DNA of 24,000 bases, from assembly GCA_964367975.1 (NCBI GenBank), contig CAYIYS010000006.1, positions 1 to 24,000 on the forward strand, given 5' to 3'. This document shows positions 3,445-18,685 of the stretch, in pieces. The stretch is from an uncultured Eubacteriales bacterium. GTDB taxonomy: Bacteria; Bacillota_I; Bacilli_A; RFN20; UBA1709. Position numbers and translations under genes: made by a program. Numbering within the stretch: position 1 is the stretch's first letter; each line of letters begins with the position of its first letter. A model generated the notes under the pieces. It did no database searches, was not told the origin of the DNA, and saw nothing but the letters and a program-made list of their open reading frames with translations.

Positions 3445-5328
3445 ATGGCATTATTAGAAGTGAATAAATTAAGAAAAGACTTCGCGGGTGAAGTCCTTTT
3501 TGATAATGTCAATTTCGCTATTAATAAAGGCGATAAGCTCGCAATTATTGGTAATAATGGGACCGGTAAAACCACTATCCTCAAGATTATTCTCAAGCAA
3601 TTGGATGCCGATGGTGGTAATGTCAACATCTCACATAACACAAGTGTTGGCTATTTATCACAAGTGATGATTCACTCATTTGATAACACTTTGCATGAAG
3701 AAATGCTCATTTCTTTTGCTGAAGTAATTGCTAAGGGCGAAGAGTTAAAAAAAGTAACTAAGGAGTTAGCGAAAGACCCCACTAATGAAATCTTACTAAA
3801 ACGTTATGGTGTTTTAGAAAACGCCTTTATGAGTATGCATGGGTATGATTATGAGTATTTAATCTCAACCATGGTTTCTAAGTTTGGCTTTAGCAAGAAT
3901 GATTATGAGCGAAAGATTTCCTCTTTTAGTGGTGGAGAAAGAAATAAAATAGCTTTTACTAAATTATTACTTTCTAAACCTGATATCTTAATTTTAGATG
4001 AACCAACCAACCATCTAGATGTCACCACTATTGAGTGGTTAGAAGATTATTTAAAGAATTATGAGGGCAGTGTCTTAATTGTCTCTCATGATAGATATTT
4101 TATTGATAATGTCTGTAATGGTGTGGTGGAAATTGCTAACCATACCTCGGATTTTTATTCCGGCAATTATTCATTCTATCTCAATGAAAAAGTGGTTAGA
4201 TATGAACAACAAATGACGGCTTTTAATTTGCAACAAAAAGAGATTGAACATCTCGAGATGTTGATTAAAAAGTTTAAACCCAAGCCGACCAAAGTCAGTT
4301 TGGCCAGAGATCGGGAAAAGAAATTGGCTCGAGTCTTAGAAAATAAGATTGATGCTCCCAAAAACAGAACCAAAGCCATTCATTTAAATTTAAAGACAGT
4401 TGATGAGCGAAGAGTTCGGCAAATGACACTTAGTAACTTGCGGTTTGGTTACCAAGAGCCACTAACTGATAATGCTTTAGATTTAGCGGTTTTCTTTGGC
4501 GATAAGATTGGTATTATTGGCCCGAACGGTTCGGGTAAAACCACTTTGCTAAAAACGCTGGCTGAAATGTTACCAATGCTAGCGGGTAAGTATCAAAAGC
4601 ATCGGGAACTTAGGAAGGGTTATATAGACCAAAATCAAATTCAAATTTCCTCTTCCAAATCAGTTTTTGATTACTTTCATGATGACTATCCGCTCTTATC
4701 AAATTATGATGTACGCCATAAACTTGGAGCTTTTCTATTTACTGGTGATGATGTTGAAAAAAGAGTTGATGATTTGTCGGGTGGCGAAAAAGTTCGATTA
4801 TCTTTTGCTAAACTAATCATGAAAAAATATGATATTTTGTTATTAGATGAACCGACTAACCATTTGGATATGGATACTCGTAAAGTACTGGAGAGTGCTT
4901 TAAGTGAATATGTAGGAACCATTATCTTTGTTTCGCATGATAGATACTTTATCGATGAATTAGCGACATCTATTATTGCAGTTGATAATCGCCAAGTGAA
5001 AGTATTCAATGGCAACTATAATCAATATAAACAACACTTAAAGGGTATTGAAGTGACTGTTGAAGATAAAATCGCAGAAAACGTAAATACTTCTAAAGAA
5101 GAAAAAGTTAAAACTGTTAAAAAGGCTTCGCGCTTATCACCGGAAAAGATAGAAGGAAAAATCTCGCAACTCGAGGCTGAAATTGAAAGCATAAAAGAGT
5201 TGATGTTTGAAGAAGAGTATTATACTGATTCAAGAAAAATGAATGAATTAGATGAGCAGATAACCGATAAGAAGATTGAACTTTCAAAGTTAGAACAAGA
5301 TTATCTTGAAACAATGAAAGGAAGCTAA
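3445..5328 (+). CDS. ABC-F family ATPase: two ABC domains, no transmembrane domain, C-terminal coiled coil; 627 aa
   Basis: Two Walker A motifs (GNNGTGKT, GPNGSGKT), two signature motifs (SGGERNK, SGGEKVR) and two Walker B motifs (ILILDEPTNHLD, ILLLDEPTNHLD). There is an inter-domain linker and a Lys/Glu-rich C-terminal tail. Confidence 0.85.
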   Translation: MALLEVNKLRKDFAGEVLFDNVNFAINKGDKLAIIGNNGTGKTTILKIILKQLDADGGNVNISHNTSVGYLSQVMIHSFDNTLHEEMLISFAEVIAKGEELKKVTKELAKDPTNEILLKRYGVLENAFMSMHGYDYEYLISTMVSKFGFSKNDYERKISSFSGGERNKIAFTKLLLSKPDILILDEPTNHLDVTTIEWLEDYLKNYEGSVLIVSHDRYFIDNVCNGVVEIANHTSDFYSGNYSFYLNEKVVRYEQQMTAFNLQQKEIEHLEMLIKKFKPKPTKVSLARDREKKLARVLENKIDAPKNRTKAIHLNLKTVDERRVRQMTLSNLRFGYQEPLTDNALDLAVFFGDKIGIIGPNGSGKTTLLKTLAEMLPMLAGKYQKHRELRKGYIDQNQIQISSSKSVFDYFHDDYPLLSNYDVRHKLGAFLFTGDDVEKRVDDLSGGEKVRLSFAKLIMKKYDILLLDEPTNHLDMDTRKVLESALSEYVGTIIFVSHDRYFIDELATSIIAVDNRQVKVFNGNYNQYKQHLKGIEVTVEDKIAENVNTSKEEKVKTVKKASRLSPEKIEGKISQLEAEIESIKELMFEEEYYTDSRKMNELDEQITDKKIELSKLEQDYLETMKGS

Positions 5329-5340
5329 GCTGTTACTATT

Positions 5341-5380
5341 GAAAAGCAAGAATTAAAATGATACAATACACTTGCTTTTC
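5341..5380 (+). terminator. Hairpin terminator after the ABC-F gene
   Basis: A perfect 10-bp stem, GAAAAGCAAG (5341-5350) with CTTGCTTTTC (5371-5380). The 20-nt loop contains TGATACAAT, an extended -10-like sequence placed upstream of tRNA-Trp. Confidence 0.5.
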
Positions 5381-5387
5381 GATTATT

Positions 5388-5461
5388 AGGGGTGTGGTTC
5401 AATGGTAGAACAGAGGTCTCCAAAACCTTTGACGAGGGTTCGATTCCTTTCACCCCTGCCA
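5388..5461 (+). tRNA. tRNA-Trp (anticodon CCA), CCA end encoded
   Basis: A manual cloverleaf fits: acceptor AGGGGTG/CACCCCT, D arm GTTC-AATGGTA-GAAC, anticodon stem GAGGT/ACCTT with loop CTCCAAA, T loop TTCGATT, discriminator G and an encoded CCA. Confidence 0.85.
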
Positions 5462-5471
5462 TTATTGAATA
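5442..5471 (+). repeat. att-like direct repeat, copy 1 (3' end of tRNA-Trp plus 10 nt)
   Basis: GATTCCTTTCACCCCTGCCATTATTGAATA matches 6857-6886 at 26 of 30 positions. Confidence 0.75.
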
Positions 5472-5479
5472 GAACAACG

Positions 5480-5510
5480 GGAACTCCTTATTTTATGGGA
5501 GTTTTTTGTT
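5480..5510 (+). terminator. Rho-independent terminator downstream of tRNA-Trp
   Basis: AACTCC (5482-5487) pairs with GGAGTT (5498-5503), followed by TTTTTTGTTT. Confidence 0.5.
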
Positions 5511-5695
5511 TAAACCTTTTATGATACAAGAAATTGTGCGAATTTATAAGTCATCTATCACTTTTATGGCTTGAACGATTGGTTATTCTTAGCTTTCCAG
5601 ACTCTGATGTCGGTTGGGGATATTTTGTCAATTACGCGTTTTCTAGAATTTTGGCAATAGGCCATTGGAGGCTATCCTTACGATAACCTCATTTT

Positions 5696-5731
5696 AATAA
5701 AAAAGGGGATTAGTCTATTGACCAATCCCTT
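5696..5731 (-). terminator. Rho-independent terminator of the MazF-like gene (minus strand)
   Basis: On the minus strand, GGGATT and AATCCC arms (plus-strand 5705-5711 and 5724-5730) are followed by CTTTTTATT. Confidence 0.55.
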
Positions 5732-5792
5732 AGGCTCAATGGAGCCTCTGTGTCTAATTGAATATGGGCCTAAGCCTCTGTTCAATTTCATA

Positions 5793-6605
5793 CTACTCGA
5801 TTCGGGTTGTTTTGTCAACGTTTTCGAAAGTGAATTTTTCTACTAGAGCTTTGTCAATATCAATCATAGCTTCTTTATTAACTTTTACTCCAATGATTGG
5901 ATCGTATTTGTTGAAAACAAGAATTCTATCTTTGCTTATAGTAGTTATATTTTCGATCAATACATAACTAATCCCCGCCAGATTTTCGTATGCGTCAAAT
6001 AAGGGCGATATTCTTTCGTAATCTTTTTGTATACTTTTGCACTCGCTTATTAATTCAGTTTATTCTTTTTTTATTTCGGCAATTAATTTGTCATTTTCTC
6101 CCTTTTCAACTAAATCATTCGTGGCTGAAACAATATTAATTTTTCTTTTGGTTGTTGCAGCTTTTGCTTGTGCAAATTCTGTTCTTTCGCCAAAATTGAG
6201 ATCTTTACATTTTGTGAGTAATCTATTCGTTAAATCGAGAGAGATGAAGTGTTTTAATGTAAGATAGTGTGGTTTGTGCTTTGATGATAAAGGAACCACA
6301 GTGAGAGTGGCGTTCCGTTTGTTGTCTGTTTTGTTAAGAACAATAGCGTAATGAATCATTGACAATTCGCTTCCAAAATTGAGACCGAAATTGACTCTTA
6401 CTAATTGACCTCTTTTATAGATTCTGTATTTTTTCTTTTCAGTGTTATTTTGCTCAAAAGAAAATTGGTTTGCTTGAAGTAAAAGGAATCGAGATAAACT
6501 TCTGAATTTGCCTTTTCCATTTGAATTATTTTGTATCGTTTTGAATTTATCGAAAGCCTCATCTATTCTTTCTTCGTGTGTTATATTGGTTTTTTCCTTG
6601 TTCAT
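5793..6605 (-). pseudogene. Full-length PemK/MazF-like gene, about 270 codons, interrupted by one in-frame TAA at 6060-6062
   Basis: The same frame stays open for 88 more codons after the TAA, to TAG at 5793-5795. That part encodes ...GISYVLIENITTISKDRILVFNKYDPIIGVKVNKEAMIDIDKALVEKF, which resembles the C-terminal MazF segment (compare B. subtilis EndoA ...SVILLEQIRTIDKQRL...MDKVDEAL, quoted from memory). It has no start codon or RBS of its own. Confidence 0.55.
6060..6605 (-). CDS. PemK/MazF-fold protein, N-terminal portion as far as the in-frame TAA; 181 aa
   Basis: YKRGQLVRVNFGLNFGSELSMIHYAIVLNK...ATLTVVPLSSK matches the first beta-strands of MazF/PemK toxins, including the G-S-E loop and the V-x-P-L-[ST]-S pattern. 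RBS GAAGGGAAA lies upstream of the ATG at 6605. Confidence 0.65.
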   Translation of the reverse strand: MNKEKTNITHEERIDEAFDKFKTIQNNSNGKGKFRSLSRFLLLQANQFSFEQNNTEKKKYRIYKRGQLVRVNFGLNFGSELSMIHYAIVLNKTDNKRNATLTVVPLSSKHKPHYLTLKHFISLDLTNRLLTKCKDLNFGERTEFAQAKAATTKRKINIVSATNDLVEKGENDKLIAEIKKE

Positions 6606-6856
6606 AGTTTATTTTCCCTTCTCTTTTCCTTGTTCGTGTGTTAATTGAGAGTTTTCTCTTAATTTTTCAATGCAAAAACGGTCATAAATATATCACCTCA
6701 CCATAATAATATCGTTTTTTGAGTAAAAATCCCCAAAAACCCATTGGCAGAGTTAAAAATAATCGCTTTACTTGTGCTAGAATTAAATTAACTCGAAAGG
6801 GGTACATATGGATATAATAGTTATTAGTCCAAAAAGATCTGAAAAAGTCCATTTTT

Positions 6857-6886
6857 GATTTTCTTCACCCCCGCCATTATTGAATA
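6857..6886 (+). repeat. att-like direct repeat, copy 2 (degenerate tRNA-Trp 3' fragment)
   Basis: GATTTTCTTCACCCCCGCCATTATTGAATA has 26 of 30 positions identical to 5442-5471. It has no matching tRNA 5' half and is followed by a T-rich tail (AGTTTTTTATTTT) like the one after copy 1. Confidence 0.75.
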
Positions 6887-7159
6887 TTAATGCTGAGAAT
6901 TATATATTGGCAGTTTTTTATTTTATTGGCCGATTAATGGTTAAAAAATGAATTGGAAGAGGAAGATTAATCAAAGAGATAGTAATACTATTGCGTTAGA
7001 CTTCAAATAATGAGAATATATATTCAATATGATAGAAGAAAATTAATGATAGAGAAAATAAAATTGCCGACTGTGTCGTAAACTATAAGGATGTCAGTAC
7101 TTGAAGATGATTATTGATAATAACAATAGATTAAAGAATCGCCAAGAAAGAAAGAAGGA

Positions 7160-11158: not shown

Positions 11159-13531
11159 ATGTATACAGTCAGAAAAAGAGAAGGAAAAGTTGTTAGTTTT
11201 GATCTTACCAAAATCAAGAATGCCATTATTAAAGCTTTTGAATCTGTTGAAAGGCAATATAATGACGATGTCATTGATTTTCTTGCCATTCGGGTAACAG
11301 CCGACTTTGAACCAAAACTCAAAGACGGGATTATTAGCGTGGAAGACATTCAAGATAGTGTCGAAAATGTTTTGATTAAAGGCGACTACGCGGATGTGGC
11401 CAAAGCCTATATTTTATATCGTAAACTTCATGAAAAAATGCGAAATATCAAAACAACAATCCTCGACTATAAGGATGTTGTTAATAGTTATGTGAACGTC
11501 ACTGACTGGCGTGTTAAAGAAAACTCAACTGTAACTTATTCAGTGGGCGGCTTAATTTTATCTAACTCAGGGGCTGTAACGGCCAATTACTGGTTAAGTG
11601 AAATCTATGATGATGAAATAGCCCGCGCTCACAAAAATGGCGATATTCATATTCATGATTTATCGATGCTGACTGGCTATTGTGCCGGTTGGTCTTTAAA
11701 ACAACTTATTCAAGAGGGCTTGGGTGGTATTTCTGGTAAAATAACTTCTTCACCAGCGAAACACTTGGCCACTTTAAGTAACCAAATGGTCAACTTTTTA
11801 GGAATTATGCAAAATGAATGGGCCGGAGCACAAGCTTTCTCTAGTGTTGATACTTATTTAGCCCCGTTTATTAAAGTTGATAATCTGCCATATAAAGAAG
11901 TTAAACAATGTTTACAATCATTTATCTATGGCGTTAATACCCCTTCCAGATGGGGGACACAAGCCCCATTTACCAATGCCACCTTCGACTGGGTAGTACC
12001 TAATGATTTAGCGGAATTAAACGCCATTGTTGGTGGGGAAGAAATGCCTTTCAAGTACAAAGATTGTAAAAAAGAAATGGATATGATTAACAAAGCTTTC
12101 ATCGAAATCATGATTGAAGGCGATGCAAATGGCCGTGGCTTCCAATATCCAATTCCAACTTATTCAATTACCAAAGATTTTGATTGGTCAGAAACCGAAA
12201 ACAATAAGTTATTGTTTGAAATGACCGCTAAATATGGCACTCCTTATTTTTCCAATTATATCAATTCGGATATGGAACCAAGCGATGTTAGATCCATGTG
12301 CTGCCGTTTAAGACTGGATTTAAGAGAACTTAGAAGAAAATCTGGCGGGTTCTTTGGTAGCGGTGAATCGACTGGCTCAGTTGGGGTAGTAACCATCAAT
12401 ATGCCAAGAATAGCTTACCTTGCTAAAGATCCACAAGATTTTTATAATCGTCTCAAAAAGGTTATGAATATCGCTGCTAGATCCATTAAAGTCAAAAGAA
12501 ATATCATTACTAAACTCTTGAAAGAGGGCTTATATCCATATACTAAGCGCTACCTTGGTAATTTTGATAATCACTTCTCAACCATTGGCATAATTGGTAT
12601 GAATGAAGTGGGTCTTAATGCCAAATGGTTAAGGAAAGACTTAACTCATAAAGAAACTCAAGAATTCACCAAAGAAGTCCTGAATTTTATGCGTAATAAA
12701 TTGTCTGATTATCAAGAAGAATATGGTGATCTATATAACTTAGAAGCCACACCAGCTGAATCAACAACCTATCGTTTAGCTAAACGCGATGTCGAACAAT
12801 ATCCAGATATTATTACGGCTGCTGAAAAAAATGGCACGCCTTACTATACTAATAGTTCGCACTTGCCTGTTGATTACACCGCCGATATTTTCGATGCTCT
12901 TGATATTCAAGATGAGCTTCAAGTGCTTTATACCTCGGGAACTGTCTTTCATGCTTTCTTAGGCGAAAGATTAACTGACTGGAAAGCAGCCGCTAAATTG
13001 GTGAAAAAGATAGCAGAAAACTATAAACTACCATATTACACTTTATCGCCAACTTATTCGGTTTGTGAAGAGCACGGCTATATCAATGGTGAACATGCCA
13101 CTTGTCCAACTTGTGGTAAAGAAACCGAAGTCTATAGTAGAATTACTGGTTATTATCGCCCAGTTAAGAACTGGAATGCGGGTAAGACTCAAGAATTTAA
13201 ACAAAGAAAAGCCTATGATGTTGATCATTCGGTTCTCTCACATAAAGCTAACAGTGTCGCTGTTGTCGCGCCAGAGCATCTACCAGTTTATAAAGACGGA
13301 CTTTACTTATTTACCACTCCGACTTGCCCTAACTGCATCATGGCAAAACAATTACTCGAGAAGACCAAACAAGCAGTAAGAGTAGTTAATGCTAATGAGG
13401 AAGTTGATCTTGTCAAACTCTTTGGGGTCAAACAAGCGCCGACCTTGTTAGTTATCAAAGACCATCAACCGGAGAAAATCGTGAATGTTTCGAATATCAA
13501 AAGATATATTCATGAAGAGGGACTGGCCTAA
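11159..13531 (+). CDS. nrdD: Class III (anaerobic) ribonucleoside-triphosphate reductase with a fused C-terminal thioredoxin/glutaredoxin-fold domain, 790 aa
   Basis: An N-terminal ATP-cone-like region (VRKREGKVVSFDLTKI), a Zn-ribbon-like CEEHGY...CPTCG and the glycyl-radical motif SRITGYYRPV are present. An extra region of about 85 aa follows, with LYLFTTPTCPNCIMAKQLL...APTLLV (CPNC redox motif). RBS GGGAGG. Confidence 0.9.
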   Translation: MYTVRKREGKVVSFDLTKIKNAIIKAFESVERQYNDDVIDFLAIRVTADFEPKLKDGIISVEDIQDSVENVLIKGDYADVAKAYILYRKLHEKMRNIKTTILDYKDVVNSYVNVTDWRVKENSTVTYSVGGLILSNSGAVTANYWLSEIYDDEIARAHKNGDIHIHDLSMLTGYCAGWSLKQLIQEGLGGISGKITSSPAKHLATLSNQMVNFLGIMQNEWAGAQAFSSVDTYLAPFIKVDNLPYKEVKQCLQSFIYGVNTPSRWGTQAPFTNATFDWVVPNDLAELNAIVGGEEMPFKYKDCKKEMDMINKAFIEIMIEGDANGRGFQYPIPTYSITKDFDWSETENNKLLFEMTAKYGTPYFSNYINSDMEPSDVRSMCCRLRLDLRELRRKSGGFFGSGESTGSVGVVTINMPRIAYLAKDPQDFYNRLKKVMNIAARSIKVKRNIITKLLKEGLYPYTKRYLGNFDNHFSTIGIIGMNEVGLNAKWLRKDLTHKETQEFTKEVLNFMRNKLSDYQEEYGDLYNLEATPAESTTYRLAKRDVEQYPDIITAAEKNGTPYYTNSSHLPVDYTADIFDALDIQDELQVLYTSGTVFHAFLGERLTDWKAAAKLVKKIAENYKLPYYTLSPTYSVCEEHGYINGEHATCPTCGKETEVYSRITGYYRPVKNWNAGKTQEFKQRKAYDVDHSVLSHKANSVAVVAPEHLPVYKDGLYLFTTPTCPNCIMAKQLLEKTKQAVRVVNANEEVDLVKLFGVKQAPTLLVIKDHQPEKIVNVSNIKRYIHEEGLA

Positions 13532-13535
13532 GTCT

Positions 13536-14441
13536 ATGCTCTATGATGTTATTATTGTTGGCAGTGGCCCGGCTGGCTTAACAGCCGCCATCTATGCTTT
13601 AAGAAGTAATAAAACAGTCTTGGTTTTAGAAAAGGAAACGCTAGGTGGCCAAATTACATCATCTCCAATGGTGGAAAATTTTCCGGGTTACCAACATATT
13701 TCTGGTAATGAATTGGTTCAAAATATTATGGATCAAGTTATTAATTTAGGTGGAATAATCGAACTCGAAGAAGTTATCCATATTGTTGATGGCAAGGTGA
13801 AAAAGATTATTACCGATCTGAACTCATATGAAGCTAAAGCTATTATCTTTGCTGCAGGAGCCAAGCATCGCCGCATTGGGTTACCCAAAGAAGAAGACTT
13901 TGTTGGAAATGGTATTAGTTTCTGTGTGACTTGTGATGGACCTTTCTATAAAGATAAGGTCGTCGGAGTTATTGGCGGAGGCAATACCGCTATCATTACG
14001 GCCTTAACTTTATGTGATATTTGCCAAAAAGTCATTATTGTGCAAAATTTACCTAAATTAACAGCCGAGCCAAATCTCCTTGATAAATTAGCTAATCGCA
14101 AAAATGTCGAAATAATTACTAATTCTACTGTTTGTGAGATTCTCGGTGAAGATGAATTAAAAGGTCTTAAAATAAATGTGGCAAGCAAGGGAATTAAACA
14201 ACTTGATTTGGATGGGATGTTTGTCTCGATTGGCCTAGTACCTAATACTGAGTTAGTCAAAGGTCTTTTAAAACTTAATGATTTCAACTATGTTGATGCT
14301 AATGAATGCCGCTCAACTATCCCTGGCATCTTTGTGGCCGGCGATGTTCGCTCTAAAAGAGTACGGCAATTAACCACAGCGGTTAGTGATGGCACGATTG
14401 CAGCAATTGAAGCCATTAATTACATCGATAACGAATATTAA
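13536..14441 (+). CDS. trxB: Thioredoxin-reductase-like flavoprotein (low-Mr TrxB family) lacking the NADPH HRRxxxR motif
   Basis: The FAD motif GSGPAG, the redox centre CVTCDG and a second dinucleotide loop GGGNTA are present. The protein appears to align with E. coli TrxB along its whole length (aligned by eye from memory). The track ORF starts at 13485 and overlaps nrdD. The ATG at 13536, 4 nt after the nrdD stop, gives the usual short N-terminus, but the start remains uncertain. Confidence 0.8.
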   Translation: MLYDVIIVGSGPAGLTAAIYALRSNKTVLVLEKETLGGQITSSPMVENFPGYQHISGNELVQNIMDQVINLGGIIELEEVIHIVDGKVKKIITDLNSYEAKAIIFAAGAKHRRIGLPKEEDFVGNGISFCVTCDGPFYKDKVVGVIGGGNTAIITALTLCDICQKVIIVQNLPKLTAEPNLLDKLANRKNVEIITNSTVCEILGEDELKGLKINVASKGIKQLDLDGMFVSIGLVPNTELVKGLLKLNDFNYVDANECRSTIPGIFVAGDVRSKRVRQLTTAVSDGTIAAIEAINYIDNEY

Positions 14442-17375: not shown

Positions 17376-17453
17376 GGCGGTAGTGGCGAAGCGGTTTAAC
17401 GCACCTGACTGTGACTCAGGCACGCGTGGGTTCGATCCCCATCTGCCGCCCCA
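17376..17453 (+). tRNA. tRNA-His (anticodon GTG) with encoded G-1 and CCA
   Basis: Acceptor GCGGTAG/CTGCCGC with one T:G pair, an extra 5' G (G-1) opposite discriminator C, anticodon stem CCTGA/TCAGG with loop CTGTGAC, and T arm GTGGG-TTCGATC-CCCAT. Confidence 0.85.
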
Positions 17454-17515
17454 TTTTTATTGAGTATGCTCCCAAAATTTGGACCGAAAAGGTACAATGA
17501 ATAGGAAGCATTTTT

Positions 17516-17671
17516 TTATATAGGTAAACAAAAGGAAATTAAATCAAAAAGAAATTGGTGTTCCCCAATTGATGCGACAATTCCAGTTAATAGCATAAAA
17601 ATAATAGGGAATAGTAATAGTTTAGTTTTGACAATTATCATTAATTTTGAAAGAATGTTTTGCTTCTTCAT
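17516..17671 (-). CDS. Small hydrophobic membrane peptide, 51 aa
   Basis: A consensus RBS AGGAGG lies 6 nt upstream of the internal ATG at 17671 (minus strand). The peptide MKKQNILSKLMIIVKTKLLLFPIIFMLLTGIVASIG... contains one clear transmembrane helix. The longer track ORF, starting at 17716, has no RBS. Confidence 0.45.
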   Translation of the reverse strand: MKKQNILSKLMIIVKTKLLLFPIIFMLLTGIVASIGEHQFLFDLISFCLPI

Positions 17672-17745
17672 GATAAGCCTCCTTATCAATACATTTGTAA
17701 TAATTTGTTTTCTCATCCAGCTAAATAATTAAACTCAAATTTTCT

Positions 17746-17761
17746 ATAACTTAGAAGTTAT
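17746..17761. repeat. Perfect palindrome ATAACTT-AG-AAGTTAT, with the half-sites repeated at 17783-17789 and 17798-17804
   Basis: Read directly from the sequence. The second site is AAGTTAT-N8-ATAACCT. TTTCTATAAC also occurs twice (17741-17750 and 17793-17802). Confidence 0.6.
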
Positions 17762-18037
17762 TTTAAATGCATATCTTATATTAAGTTATTAATTTCTATA
17801 ACCTATAATCATTATGATTTAATTAACGAAAAATACTTCATATTCAGCAAAAAAGATATTGTCATAACAGTTACTTTCTTAACCACAATATCGCCAATAT
17901 AACCAATTGCGTAGTAGATATCAATTACATAAAATGATAAAATAAGTATATTAAATTGTTTTAAATAAACCCAACAGGATCTAACGATTTGAACAAATAG
18001 GACAAAAACTCAATATTATGATTAAGGAGGAATAAGT

Positions 18038-18685
18038 ATGAAAGTAATTGATCTGAATACATGGAAGGGTAAGAAGCATTATGAGTGGTTCAAACAATAT
18101 GATTTTCCATGCTATTGTTTTAGTAAGAAATTGGATGTAACTTCGGTAGTGGAATTTACTAAACAACACGATTTATCTTTCTTTATAACAATCCTTTATT
18201 TATTTAATACTGCCTTAAATGGAATTGAAGAAATGAGAATTAGAGAAGTAGAGGGTCAGGTAGTCATCTATGATGTGATTCACCCAGCTTATACTGTTAT
18301 GACACATCAAGGTGTCTTTGAAAACTGTGATAATGAATATGACGCTGATTTCAACAAGTTTTATCAATTAACCAAACAAGCGATTCATAACAAGGGAAAT
18401 GGCATAAATGAAGAAAGTTATAACGATTATACAAGACTTGATCAATACTACTTTACTTGTGTTCCTTGGTGTAGTTTTGATAGCGCTACTCATCCAATGA
18501 CCAAAGATCCAACTATTTCGGTTCCCCGTATTGGTTGGTGTAAATATGAGTTAATCAATGACAAGTATATGATGGCGGTTAGCTTTAATGCTTATCATGC
18601 TATTATTGATGGCTATCCATTATGTTTGGCATTTAATAAAATGCAAGAATATCTAAATAAAGTAGCCGATATTATCAAGTTATAG
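18038..18685 (+). CDS. cat: Type A chloramphenicol O-acetyltransferase family protein (CAT-like), 215 aa
   Basis: The protein appears colinear with classical CAT, aligned by eye from memory: DLNTWKGKKHYEWF against DISQWHRKEHFEAF, HPAYTVM against HPCYTVF, VPWCSFDS against NPWVSFTS, and the catalytic region YHAIIDGYP against HHAVCDGFH. RBS AAGGAGG. Confidence 0.75.
   Translation: MKVIDLNTWKGKKHYEWFKQYDFPCYCFSKKLDVTSVVEFTKQHDLSFFITILYLFNTALNGIEEMRIREVEGQVVIYDVIHPAYTVMTHQGVFENCDNEYDADFNKFYQLTKQAIHNKGNGINEESYNDYTRLDQYYFTCVPWCSFDSATHPMTKDPTISVPRIGWCKYELINDKYMMAVSFNAYHAIIDGYPLCLAFNKMQEYLNKVADIIKL

Follow-up and report, generated by a model that had tools for sequence, protein, structure and literature searches.

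Canonical MazF/PemK/EndoA proteins, such as B. subtilis MazF (4MDX), S. aureus MazF and M. tuberculosis MazF-mt1, are beta-barrels of about 115 amino acids (aa), and in type II MazEF/PemIK modules the gene of a MazE or PemI antitoxin lies upstream. A longer version of the fold is found in the phage and satellite proteins of PHROG 1412, which combine an N-terminal extension, a MazF core split by a helical insert and the motif ITTISKxRI, and which have no antitoxin. Papers on staphylococcal phages give this family as a PemK/MazF-family toxin gene, the function of which was not assayed there (PMC6507118, PMC11018700). Here, we analyse a member of this family that lies in two pieces on the minus strand, at positions 5793 to 6605, of a 24,000-nucleotide (nt) stretch from an uncultured Eubacteriales bacterium (contig CAYIYS010000006.1, positions 1 to 24,000; hereafter the window). 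We put at about 75% the probability that this locus is a pseudogene of the long MazF/PemK-like family, disrupted by one nonsense codon and left behind in the 1415 bp that remain of an integrative element at tRNA-Trp.

The locus resembles both the canonical proteins and the phage family, and differs from both. With canonical MazF the joined protein shares the beta-barrel fold, the KRG...GSE...GG and QIxTIxKxR motifs and a match to PF02452 above threshold. Yet it would have 270 aa, including an N-terminal extension of 62 aa and an insert of about 80 aa, it carries His85 where the canonical proteins have Arg25 (R29 in E. coli), and it has no MazE/PemI gene beside it. With the PHROG 1412 proteins it shares all the features listed above, but it is at most 38% identical to them, is cut by a TAA, lies outside any prophage and has neither a repressor nor an integrase at its flanks. 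The surrounding segment has its own parallel. Islets flanked by att sites at the 3' ends of tRNA genes and devoid of a recombinase are typical of cis-mobilizable element (CIME)-type remnants. In the window, too, direct repeats that include a tRNA 3' end bound a short segment without integrase, although no related full-size element was found at this site.

The interrupted reading frame and its fold

The initial annotation of the locus described a 181-aa open reading frame (ORF), a TAA at 6060-6062 and an in-frame continuation of 88 codons, and our analysis confirmed both coordinates and frame. Read on the minus strand from 6605 to 6060, the ORF starts with ATG and ends at this TAA, which is codon 182 of the joined gene. 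The same frame then runs through 88 sense codons to a TAG at 5793-5795, giving a conceptual joined protein of 270 aa. In the direction of transcription, the parts of the gene are as follows.

6606..6853, minus strand: leader/promoter region, with an AAGGGA resembling a ribosome-binding site (RBS) about 10 nt before the ATG and without a coding partner
6060..6605, minus strand: 5' fragment, 181 codons and the TAA; helical N-terminal extension (aa 1-62), MazF strands 1-4 (aa 63-118) and insert helices 1-3
6060..6062, minus strand: in-frame TAA, the sole lesion
5793..6059, minus strand: 3' fragment, 88 codons and the TAG; last insert helix, C-terminal strands with ITTISKxRI and C-terminal helix
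5696..5729, minus strand: intrinsic terminator, a 10-pair stem (5729->5706) followed by the T run CTTTTTTATT; as first annotated, it is found only after the second part

Given the base composition of the window, where a stop is expected every ~15 codons, 88 codons free of stops have a chance probability of about 0.002. The continuation is also longer than that beyond any other long ORF of the window, save for one pair of adjacent real genes. At the lesion the codons read GAA TAA ACT, directly after an A-rich run.

Both halves of the MazF/PemK fold are recognisable, as the initial annotation had proposed. The Pfam family PemK_toxin (PF02452) matches residues 64-118 with positions 1-56 of its 109, and scores 26.7 bits with the 181-aa ORF and 36 bits with the joined 270 aa (gathering cut-off 23.1). 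A profile built from full-length relatives matches the 5' fragment with 133 bits (positions 6-180) and, in the same frame, the part after the TAA taken alone with 77 bits (positions 165-244). This family profile aligns to MazF chains in two pieces, 66-95 to MazF 4-33 and 182-236 to MazF 62-108, and the 3' fragment corresponds to the latter. The structure of the joined protein as modelled by AlphaFold2 (AF2; mean pLDDT score 76.6) begins with an N-terminal extension of two helices, continues with three strands and then four helices, and closes with one more strand and the C-terminal helix. When it was compared with the PDB using Foldseek, the top matches were solely MazF, EndoA, MoxT and PemK structures (probability 1.0). 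The full-length alignments have target TM-scores of 0.70-0.79 over ~200 columns that bridge the insert and cover both halves.

The N-terminal extension, first put at about 60 aa, measures 62 aa. The insert, first put at about 85 aa, comes to ~80 aa because the spacing between PLxS and TTISK (S108 to T221) is ~112 aa in the window protein versus 31 aa in B. subtilis MazF; the AF2 model agrees. It is helical and separates strand 4 of the fold from strand 5. In the model, then, the two fragments are one MazF/PemK fold whose extra mass is the N-terminal extension and the helical insert. Only the conceptual joined protein contains a complete MazF barrel. Judging from its sequence, the 181-aa product that is actually encoded cannot form this fold, because it has neither strands 5-7, nor the C-terminal helix, nor the invariant Q-I-T-T-I-S-K-x-R motif.

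One might speculate that the interrupted gene still works, either through readthrough of the TAA or as a 181-aa N-terminal piece complemented by a C-terminal piece with its own internal start. The position of the stop would suit such a split: the AF2 model puts it in a predicted loop that joins insert helices H171-180 and H184-209, where folding would be least disturbed, and transcription would end only at the terminator after the second part. But TAA is the main stop codon of the window, ending 15 of 20 housekeeping genes (TAG ends 5 and TGA none), and no recoding signal is evident, which goes against the readthrough that was among the readings first offered. A reassignment of TAA in the genetic code was rejected on the same count of 15 in 20 genes.

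As to an internal start, the second part had been described as having neither start codon nor RBS. The latter point stands in that no convincing RBS was found, and the former holds for the first 33 codons past the TAA, which contain neither. Further on, however, there are two in-frame candidates, a TTG at codon 216 and an ATG at codon 247, both at or within the C-terminal strands. The TTG has a GGGG about 12 nt upstream, which would favour its use, but it lies inside the strand that precedes ITTISK, and the ATG lies beyond this motif. Furthermore, the 1906 relatives described below are single polypeptides, and the copy of phage phiST9-C is cut at codon 122, so that the site of splitting is not conserved. 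It is thus very improbable that the gene works in its interrupted state.

Two further observations concern these signals. TGA is absent both at the ends of and inside 20 confident genes (ORFs across 301-23820), a small sample that could hint at TGA being very rare or unused in the low-GC Bacilli lineage of the window. Around the start of the PemK-like gene, a 40-nt imperfect direct repeat (6557-6596 and 6617-6656; 73% identity, 60-nt spacing) copies the first codons of the gene into its own leader (AACACACGAA...AAGGAAAA), possibly as a result of a small tandem duplication.

The long PemK-like family and its prophage context

The joined protein matches PHROG 1412 over its full length (E 3.8e-53), with residues 11-259 aligned to positions 5-235 of the 237 of the profile. 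A search of 5.8 billion clustered proteins gave 26 matches. Beyond an identical 181-aa entry, these were only relatives with 25-38% identity, mostly of 213-299 aa, uninterrupted and spanning both halves. When a profile was searched against 1.84 billion representatives we obtained 1906 matches at E<=1e-3, among them 546 at E<=1e-30; the best 150 of the 1906 are mostly of 230-290 aa, nearly all matching in one full-length stretch. With tblastn the family was found in 111 phage or satellite records (63 from Staphylococcus and 48 from Streptococcus), and BFVD returned full-length structural matches titled 'PemK-like protein'. Named members include a protein of S. pneumoniae phage K13 (CDL74015.1), ORF005 of S. 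aureus phage PT1028 and the 226-aa protein of phage Hesat. The oversized architecture is therefore standard for a large catalogued phage family rather than peculiar to the window gene, and the window copy is a divergent further member of this family.

The names given to the family are of little help. PHROG 1412 is placed in the category 'moron' and labelled 'antitoxin mazE-like', a label that we rejected since the fold and the motifs are those of MazF. RefSeq phage records carry the label over, and it is probably a propagated misannotation. In the phage records found by tblastn the annotations are 'PemK domain phage protein', 'hypothetical' and 'Pathogenicity island SaPIn2'.

For residue statistics we used 186 members with 200 aa or more. 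Five positions are invariant (G66, E80, P105, S108 and K225) and five others nearly so (Q219, T222, S224, R227 and I228). H85, which aligns with the catalytic R25 of B. subtilis MazF, is present in 184 of the 186. Position 107, equivalent to the catalytic T48 of B. subtilis (T52 in E. coli) by a manual register of PLSS against PCTT and AITA, is T or S in 157 members and otherwise K, I, M or G; the window protein has Ser. It also retains T222, I223, S224, K225 and I250, and departs at two conserved positions, with M83 for G and N219 for Q. Across the family the gap from motif to motif ranges from 55 to 191 aa (median 98), and the N-terminal extension has a median of 65 aa and is missing in some members.

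Intact relatives are found in the lysogeny modules of Firmicutes temperate phages and satellites. In 9 out of 10 distinct contexts the gene is on the strand of a CI-type repressor and downstream of it, with an integrase next. Representative contexts, including helix-turn-helix (HTH) regulators, are these.

P0010: gene preceded by CI (HTH and S24 domains) and followed by a tyrosine integrase, where prophage and host DNA meet
P0014: gene preceded by an HTH protein, with a serine recombinase further along
Pneumococcal phage K13: gene 2 nt downstream of that for a DNA-binding protein and followed by an integrase
Javan178: CI-like repressor, then the gene, then an integrase
S. aureus prophages: CI, then a 181-aa ORF, then the gene, then a serine integrase
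L015 (IMGVR_UViG_3300021254_000128), 4339-5600: LexA/S24-type CI whose stop overlaps the start of the gene by 4 nt
P0002, from the subclade nearest to the window gene: cro/CI, then a 142-aa ORF, then the gene, then a serine recombinase

We found no antitoxin or conserved small partner gene in the relatives, where the upstream gene is either a CI-like repressor or an unrelated ORF of 142-181 aa. Nor does an ORF with antitoxin features adjoin the PemK-like gene in the window. The lack of a MazE-like antitoxin, first noted for the window gene, thus extends to its relatives. The L015 member is a 202-aa protein without N-terminal extension, and its 4-nt overlap of stop and start indicates translational coupling with the CI repressor. 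In such an arrangement the repressor might restrain the PemK-like protein.

The initial annotation asked whether homologues run through the position of the stop. They do: 90 of 91 related loci are uninterrupted, and one other is split. In the finished genome of Staphylococcus phage phiST9-C (OQ578995.1, 4001-4705) the gene has an in-frame TAA at codon 122 and is annotated as two hypothetical proteins. This TAA being independent of the one in the window, nonsense knock-outs of the family gene recur. A programmed split that recurs in the family was considered and rejected, as a split was seen in only 2 of ~12 distinct copies and the codons concerned differ.

The islet at tRNA-Trp

The PemK-like gene of the window lies next to a tRNA gene and between two repeats, with the following layout.

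5388..5461, plus strand: tRNA-Trp (CCA), the presumed integration target
5439..5471, plus strand: proximal att-like repeat, made of the last 23 nt of tRNA-Trp and 10 nt beyond
5488..5511, plus strand: T-rich, terminator-like segment past the tRNA, 79% identical to 6900-6923 at a spacing of 1412 nt
6854..6886, plus strand: distal att-like repeat, a displaced tRNA 3'-end fragment at the far edge of the 1415-bp islet
6900..6923, plus strand: distal partner of 5488-5511

The two att-like repeats are identical at 28 of 33 positions and 1415 nt apart. The 23-mer at 5449-5471 recurs once with one mismatch, whereas 100 shuffles gave no such match. Since direct repeats including the tRNA 3' end flank the segment, an element seems to have integrated at the 3' end of this tRNA. 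What lies between the repeats (5472-6853) is only the PemK-like gene, pointing towards tRNA-Trp, with its leader and terminator. When 12 integrases and repressors from related loci were searched with tblastn against the islet and the whole window nothing significant was found, and the islet had no blastn match among 50,697 phage records.

These data fit a simple history. A prophage or satellite carrying a PHROG 1412 gene would have integrated at the 3' end of tRNA-Trp, and would later have been deleted down to a single gene in a 1.4-kb scar. The gene would have acquired its TAA then, or earlier. With the frame kept, a score of 77 bits for the distal part and all invariant residues retained, the inactivation is probably recent. 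Of the three readings first offered, namely a recently inactivated solitary toxin, a toxin with a built-in regulator and stop-codon readthrough, the first is the best supported.

The main rival to a pseudogene is that the organism has an undamaged gene and that the TAA is an error of sequencing or assembly. In its favour, there is a single lesion, the second half remains fully family-like in its score and its invariant residues, and RBS and terminator are intact. The TAA follows an A-rich run, the source resembles a draft or metagenome-type assembly, and the nearest genome found is a metagenome-assembled genome (MAG). However, since the frame is kept, the change is of the substitution type and not an error in homopolymer length. 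The independent TAA of phiST9-C, in a finished genome, shows that real knock-outs occur. Besides, a loss of function is what one would expect of a gene that is by now an orphan in a decayed islet. An error accordingly strikes us as improbable.

Several other results limit the case for a recent knock-out within a prophage remnant. The nearest relative, at 38% identity, is too distant to reveal the ancestral codon at the stop or the age of the lesion. The collections searched contain no conspecific tRNA-Trp site, either empty or fully occupied, and for this reason the prophage-remnant history is drawn from the repeats and the usual context of the family. In particular, the predicted empty site (tRNA-Trp followed by ATTATTGAATA and TTAATGCTGAG...) and the right junction had no match in metagenome contigs, and neither the tRNA 3' end nor the att core had any in viral contigs. 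In metagenome contigs the tRNA 3' end matched four times, once in a related species (ABC-F gene ~70% identical in nucleotides) whose tRNA-Trp has neither the PemK-like gene nor the 10-nt ATTATTGAATA extension; the synteny there differs regardless. The flanking ABC-F protein led to no more than a 'Bacilli bacterium' MAG, with 69% identity and without synteny downstream. Among GTDB species genomes the joined protein had no relative.

The other genes of the window are all chromosomal housekeeping genes, encoded with a single exception on the plus strand, and no phage gene is among them. They encode a type II secretion system-type ATPase, an ABC-F protein, a spermine-synthase-like protein, GNATs, NrdG, NrdD, TrxB, a desulfoferrodoxin, an ABC exporter, a NUDIX protein, an M32 peptidase, a DtxR-like repressor and FeoB. 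NrdD (11159-13531, 790 aa) has a C-terminal glutaredoxin/thioredoxin-like domain (residues ~715-776), and the last 47 nt of its gene are also the beginning of a thioredoxin-reductase-like ORF (13485-14441), an arrangement that looks like a fused or linked supply of reductant. Elsewhere (17377-18037), tRNA-His (GTG) is followed by ~580 bp without long ORF and then by a gene of the chloramphenicol-acetyltransferase family (18038-18685). This could be a second accessory site next to a tRNA.

Possible function of the intact family

What might an intact member of this family do? The conservation of the residues of the MazF groove, with the catalytic Arg replaced by a His, points to an RNase that has been modified but remains active, and speaks against a mere scaffold. 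His is a common general acid/base in RNases. The position of the gene in the cI operon implies expression in lysogens. An intact protein would hence be an RNA-cleaving effector made in lysogens, in which His85 would stand in for the catalytic Arg of MazF next to the conserved Thr/Ser107, Ser108, Glu80 and Lys225. It would serve either defence against superinfecting phages or the maintenance of the prophage. Without antitoxin, it would be restrained by its own helical N-terminal extension and insert, or by a narrow substrate specificity. The variable insert, placed in the loop between strands 4 and 5 beside the substrate groove, could gate the activity.

Two described systems are instructive in this respect. 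CapRel(SJ46) is a prophage-encoded fused toxin-antitoxin, a single polypeptide whose extra domains could inhibit the toxin in cis and sense phage. The PemK-like proteins are also prophage-encoded single polypeptides in which a toxin domain is joined to extra domains, but toxin fold and chemistry are different, and their auto-inhibition is pure conjecture, some members having no N-terminal extension. Tha is a single-protein HEPN RNase defence of the S. aureus phages 80alpha, phi11 and phiNM2, encoded in the cI operon next to int. Tail proteins of incoming phages trigger it, and a small inhibitor encoded by the phage keeps it in check while the phage goes through its own lytic cycle (PMC11087260). 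Like the PemK-like family, the Tha/Ith system occupies a slot in the cI-driven lysogeny operon adjoining the integrase, and consists of a single large protein, with an RNase-type domain and a poorly conserved extra domain, that has no classical antitoxin. Yet one is of the HEPN and the other of the MazF fold, and no Ith-like inhibitor was identified for the PemK-like family, so that this is an analogy only. By analogy with Tha, lysogens may express the long PemK-like protein as an effector of defence or maintenance. In phage K13 (locus L009) a 43-aa antisense ORF (4699-4830, minus strand) lies between the PemK-like gene and the integrase, a position resembling that of ith-1, the Tha inhibitor gene of phage 80alpha.

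Some observations go against this view of the family. The absence of the N-terminal extension in some members weighs against an obligatory inhibitor in cis, and the change from Arg to His could mean that RNase activity was lost. A non-canonical staphylococcal PemK with altered catalytic residues is neither toxic nor active (PMC11915791). The joined protein matched no family in an NCBIfam scan and none at E<=1 in PADLOC-DB 2.0, and our literature searches on the family returned annotations and no functional assay.

The family might then be a MazF-fold binding or regulatory protein of the lysogeny module, for example one that modulates the repressor or a host MazEF, and neither a nuclease nor a toxin; the window copy would be a pseudogene all the same. 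A protein of this kind would need no antitoxin, and its co-transcription with CI, the His found at the catalytic position in 184 of 186 members and the inactive staphylococcal PemK would all be accounted for. Even the PHROG label 'antitoxin mazE-like' might point to it. However, the fold is that of MazF, not of MazE. Residues of the active site and RNA groove (E80, T/S107, S108, Q219, K225 and R227) are nearly invariant, beyond the needs of a scaffold, and a His is able to serve RNase chemistry. The recurrent nonsense knock-outs also fit a costly activity. We therefore regard a pure binding role as unlikely.

A bolder proposal can be drawn from the same sequences. The family could represent an unrecognised single-gene and antitoxin-free effector by which temperate phages achieve defence or maintenance, a MazF-derived RNase with His for Arg. 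Its hypervariable helical insert at the substrate groove, with or without the N-terminal extension, would both auto-inhibit it and sense a component of the invading phage. We offer this tentatively, and would sooner expect it to fail than to hold. If true, the family would be to the MazF fold what Tha is to HEPN, or an equivalent of fused toxin-antitoxins like CapRel, and the cost of carrying it would account for the nonsense knock-outs in the window and in phiST9-C. The window copy would be dead all the same.

For the annotation of this genome, the pseudogene reading means that the two ORF fragments should be merged into one pseudogene of a phage-derived PemK/MazF-like family, and that 5472-6853 is to be described as the decayed scar of an integrative element at tRNA-Trp. 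The family itself has hundreds of diverged members in prophages and satellites of staphylococci, streptococci and gut Bacilli. It is worth experiments because it is antitoxin-less, sits in the repressor operon, has exchanged the catalytic Arg for His, carries a variable insert at the groove, is mislabelled, and is absent from defence catalogues and from any functional paper that we found. The broken copy of the window is not the one to use, but its intact relatives make the family a reasonable candidate for work on prophage-encoded immunity.

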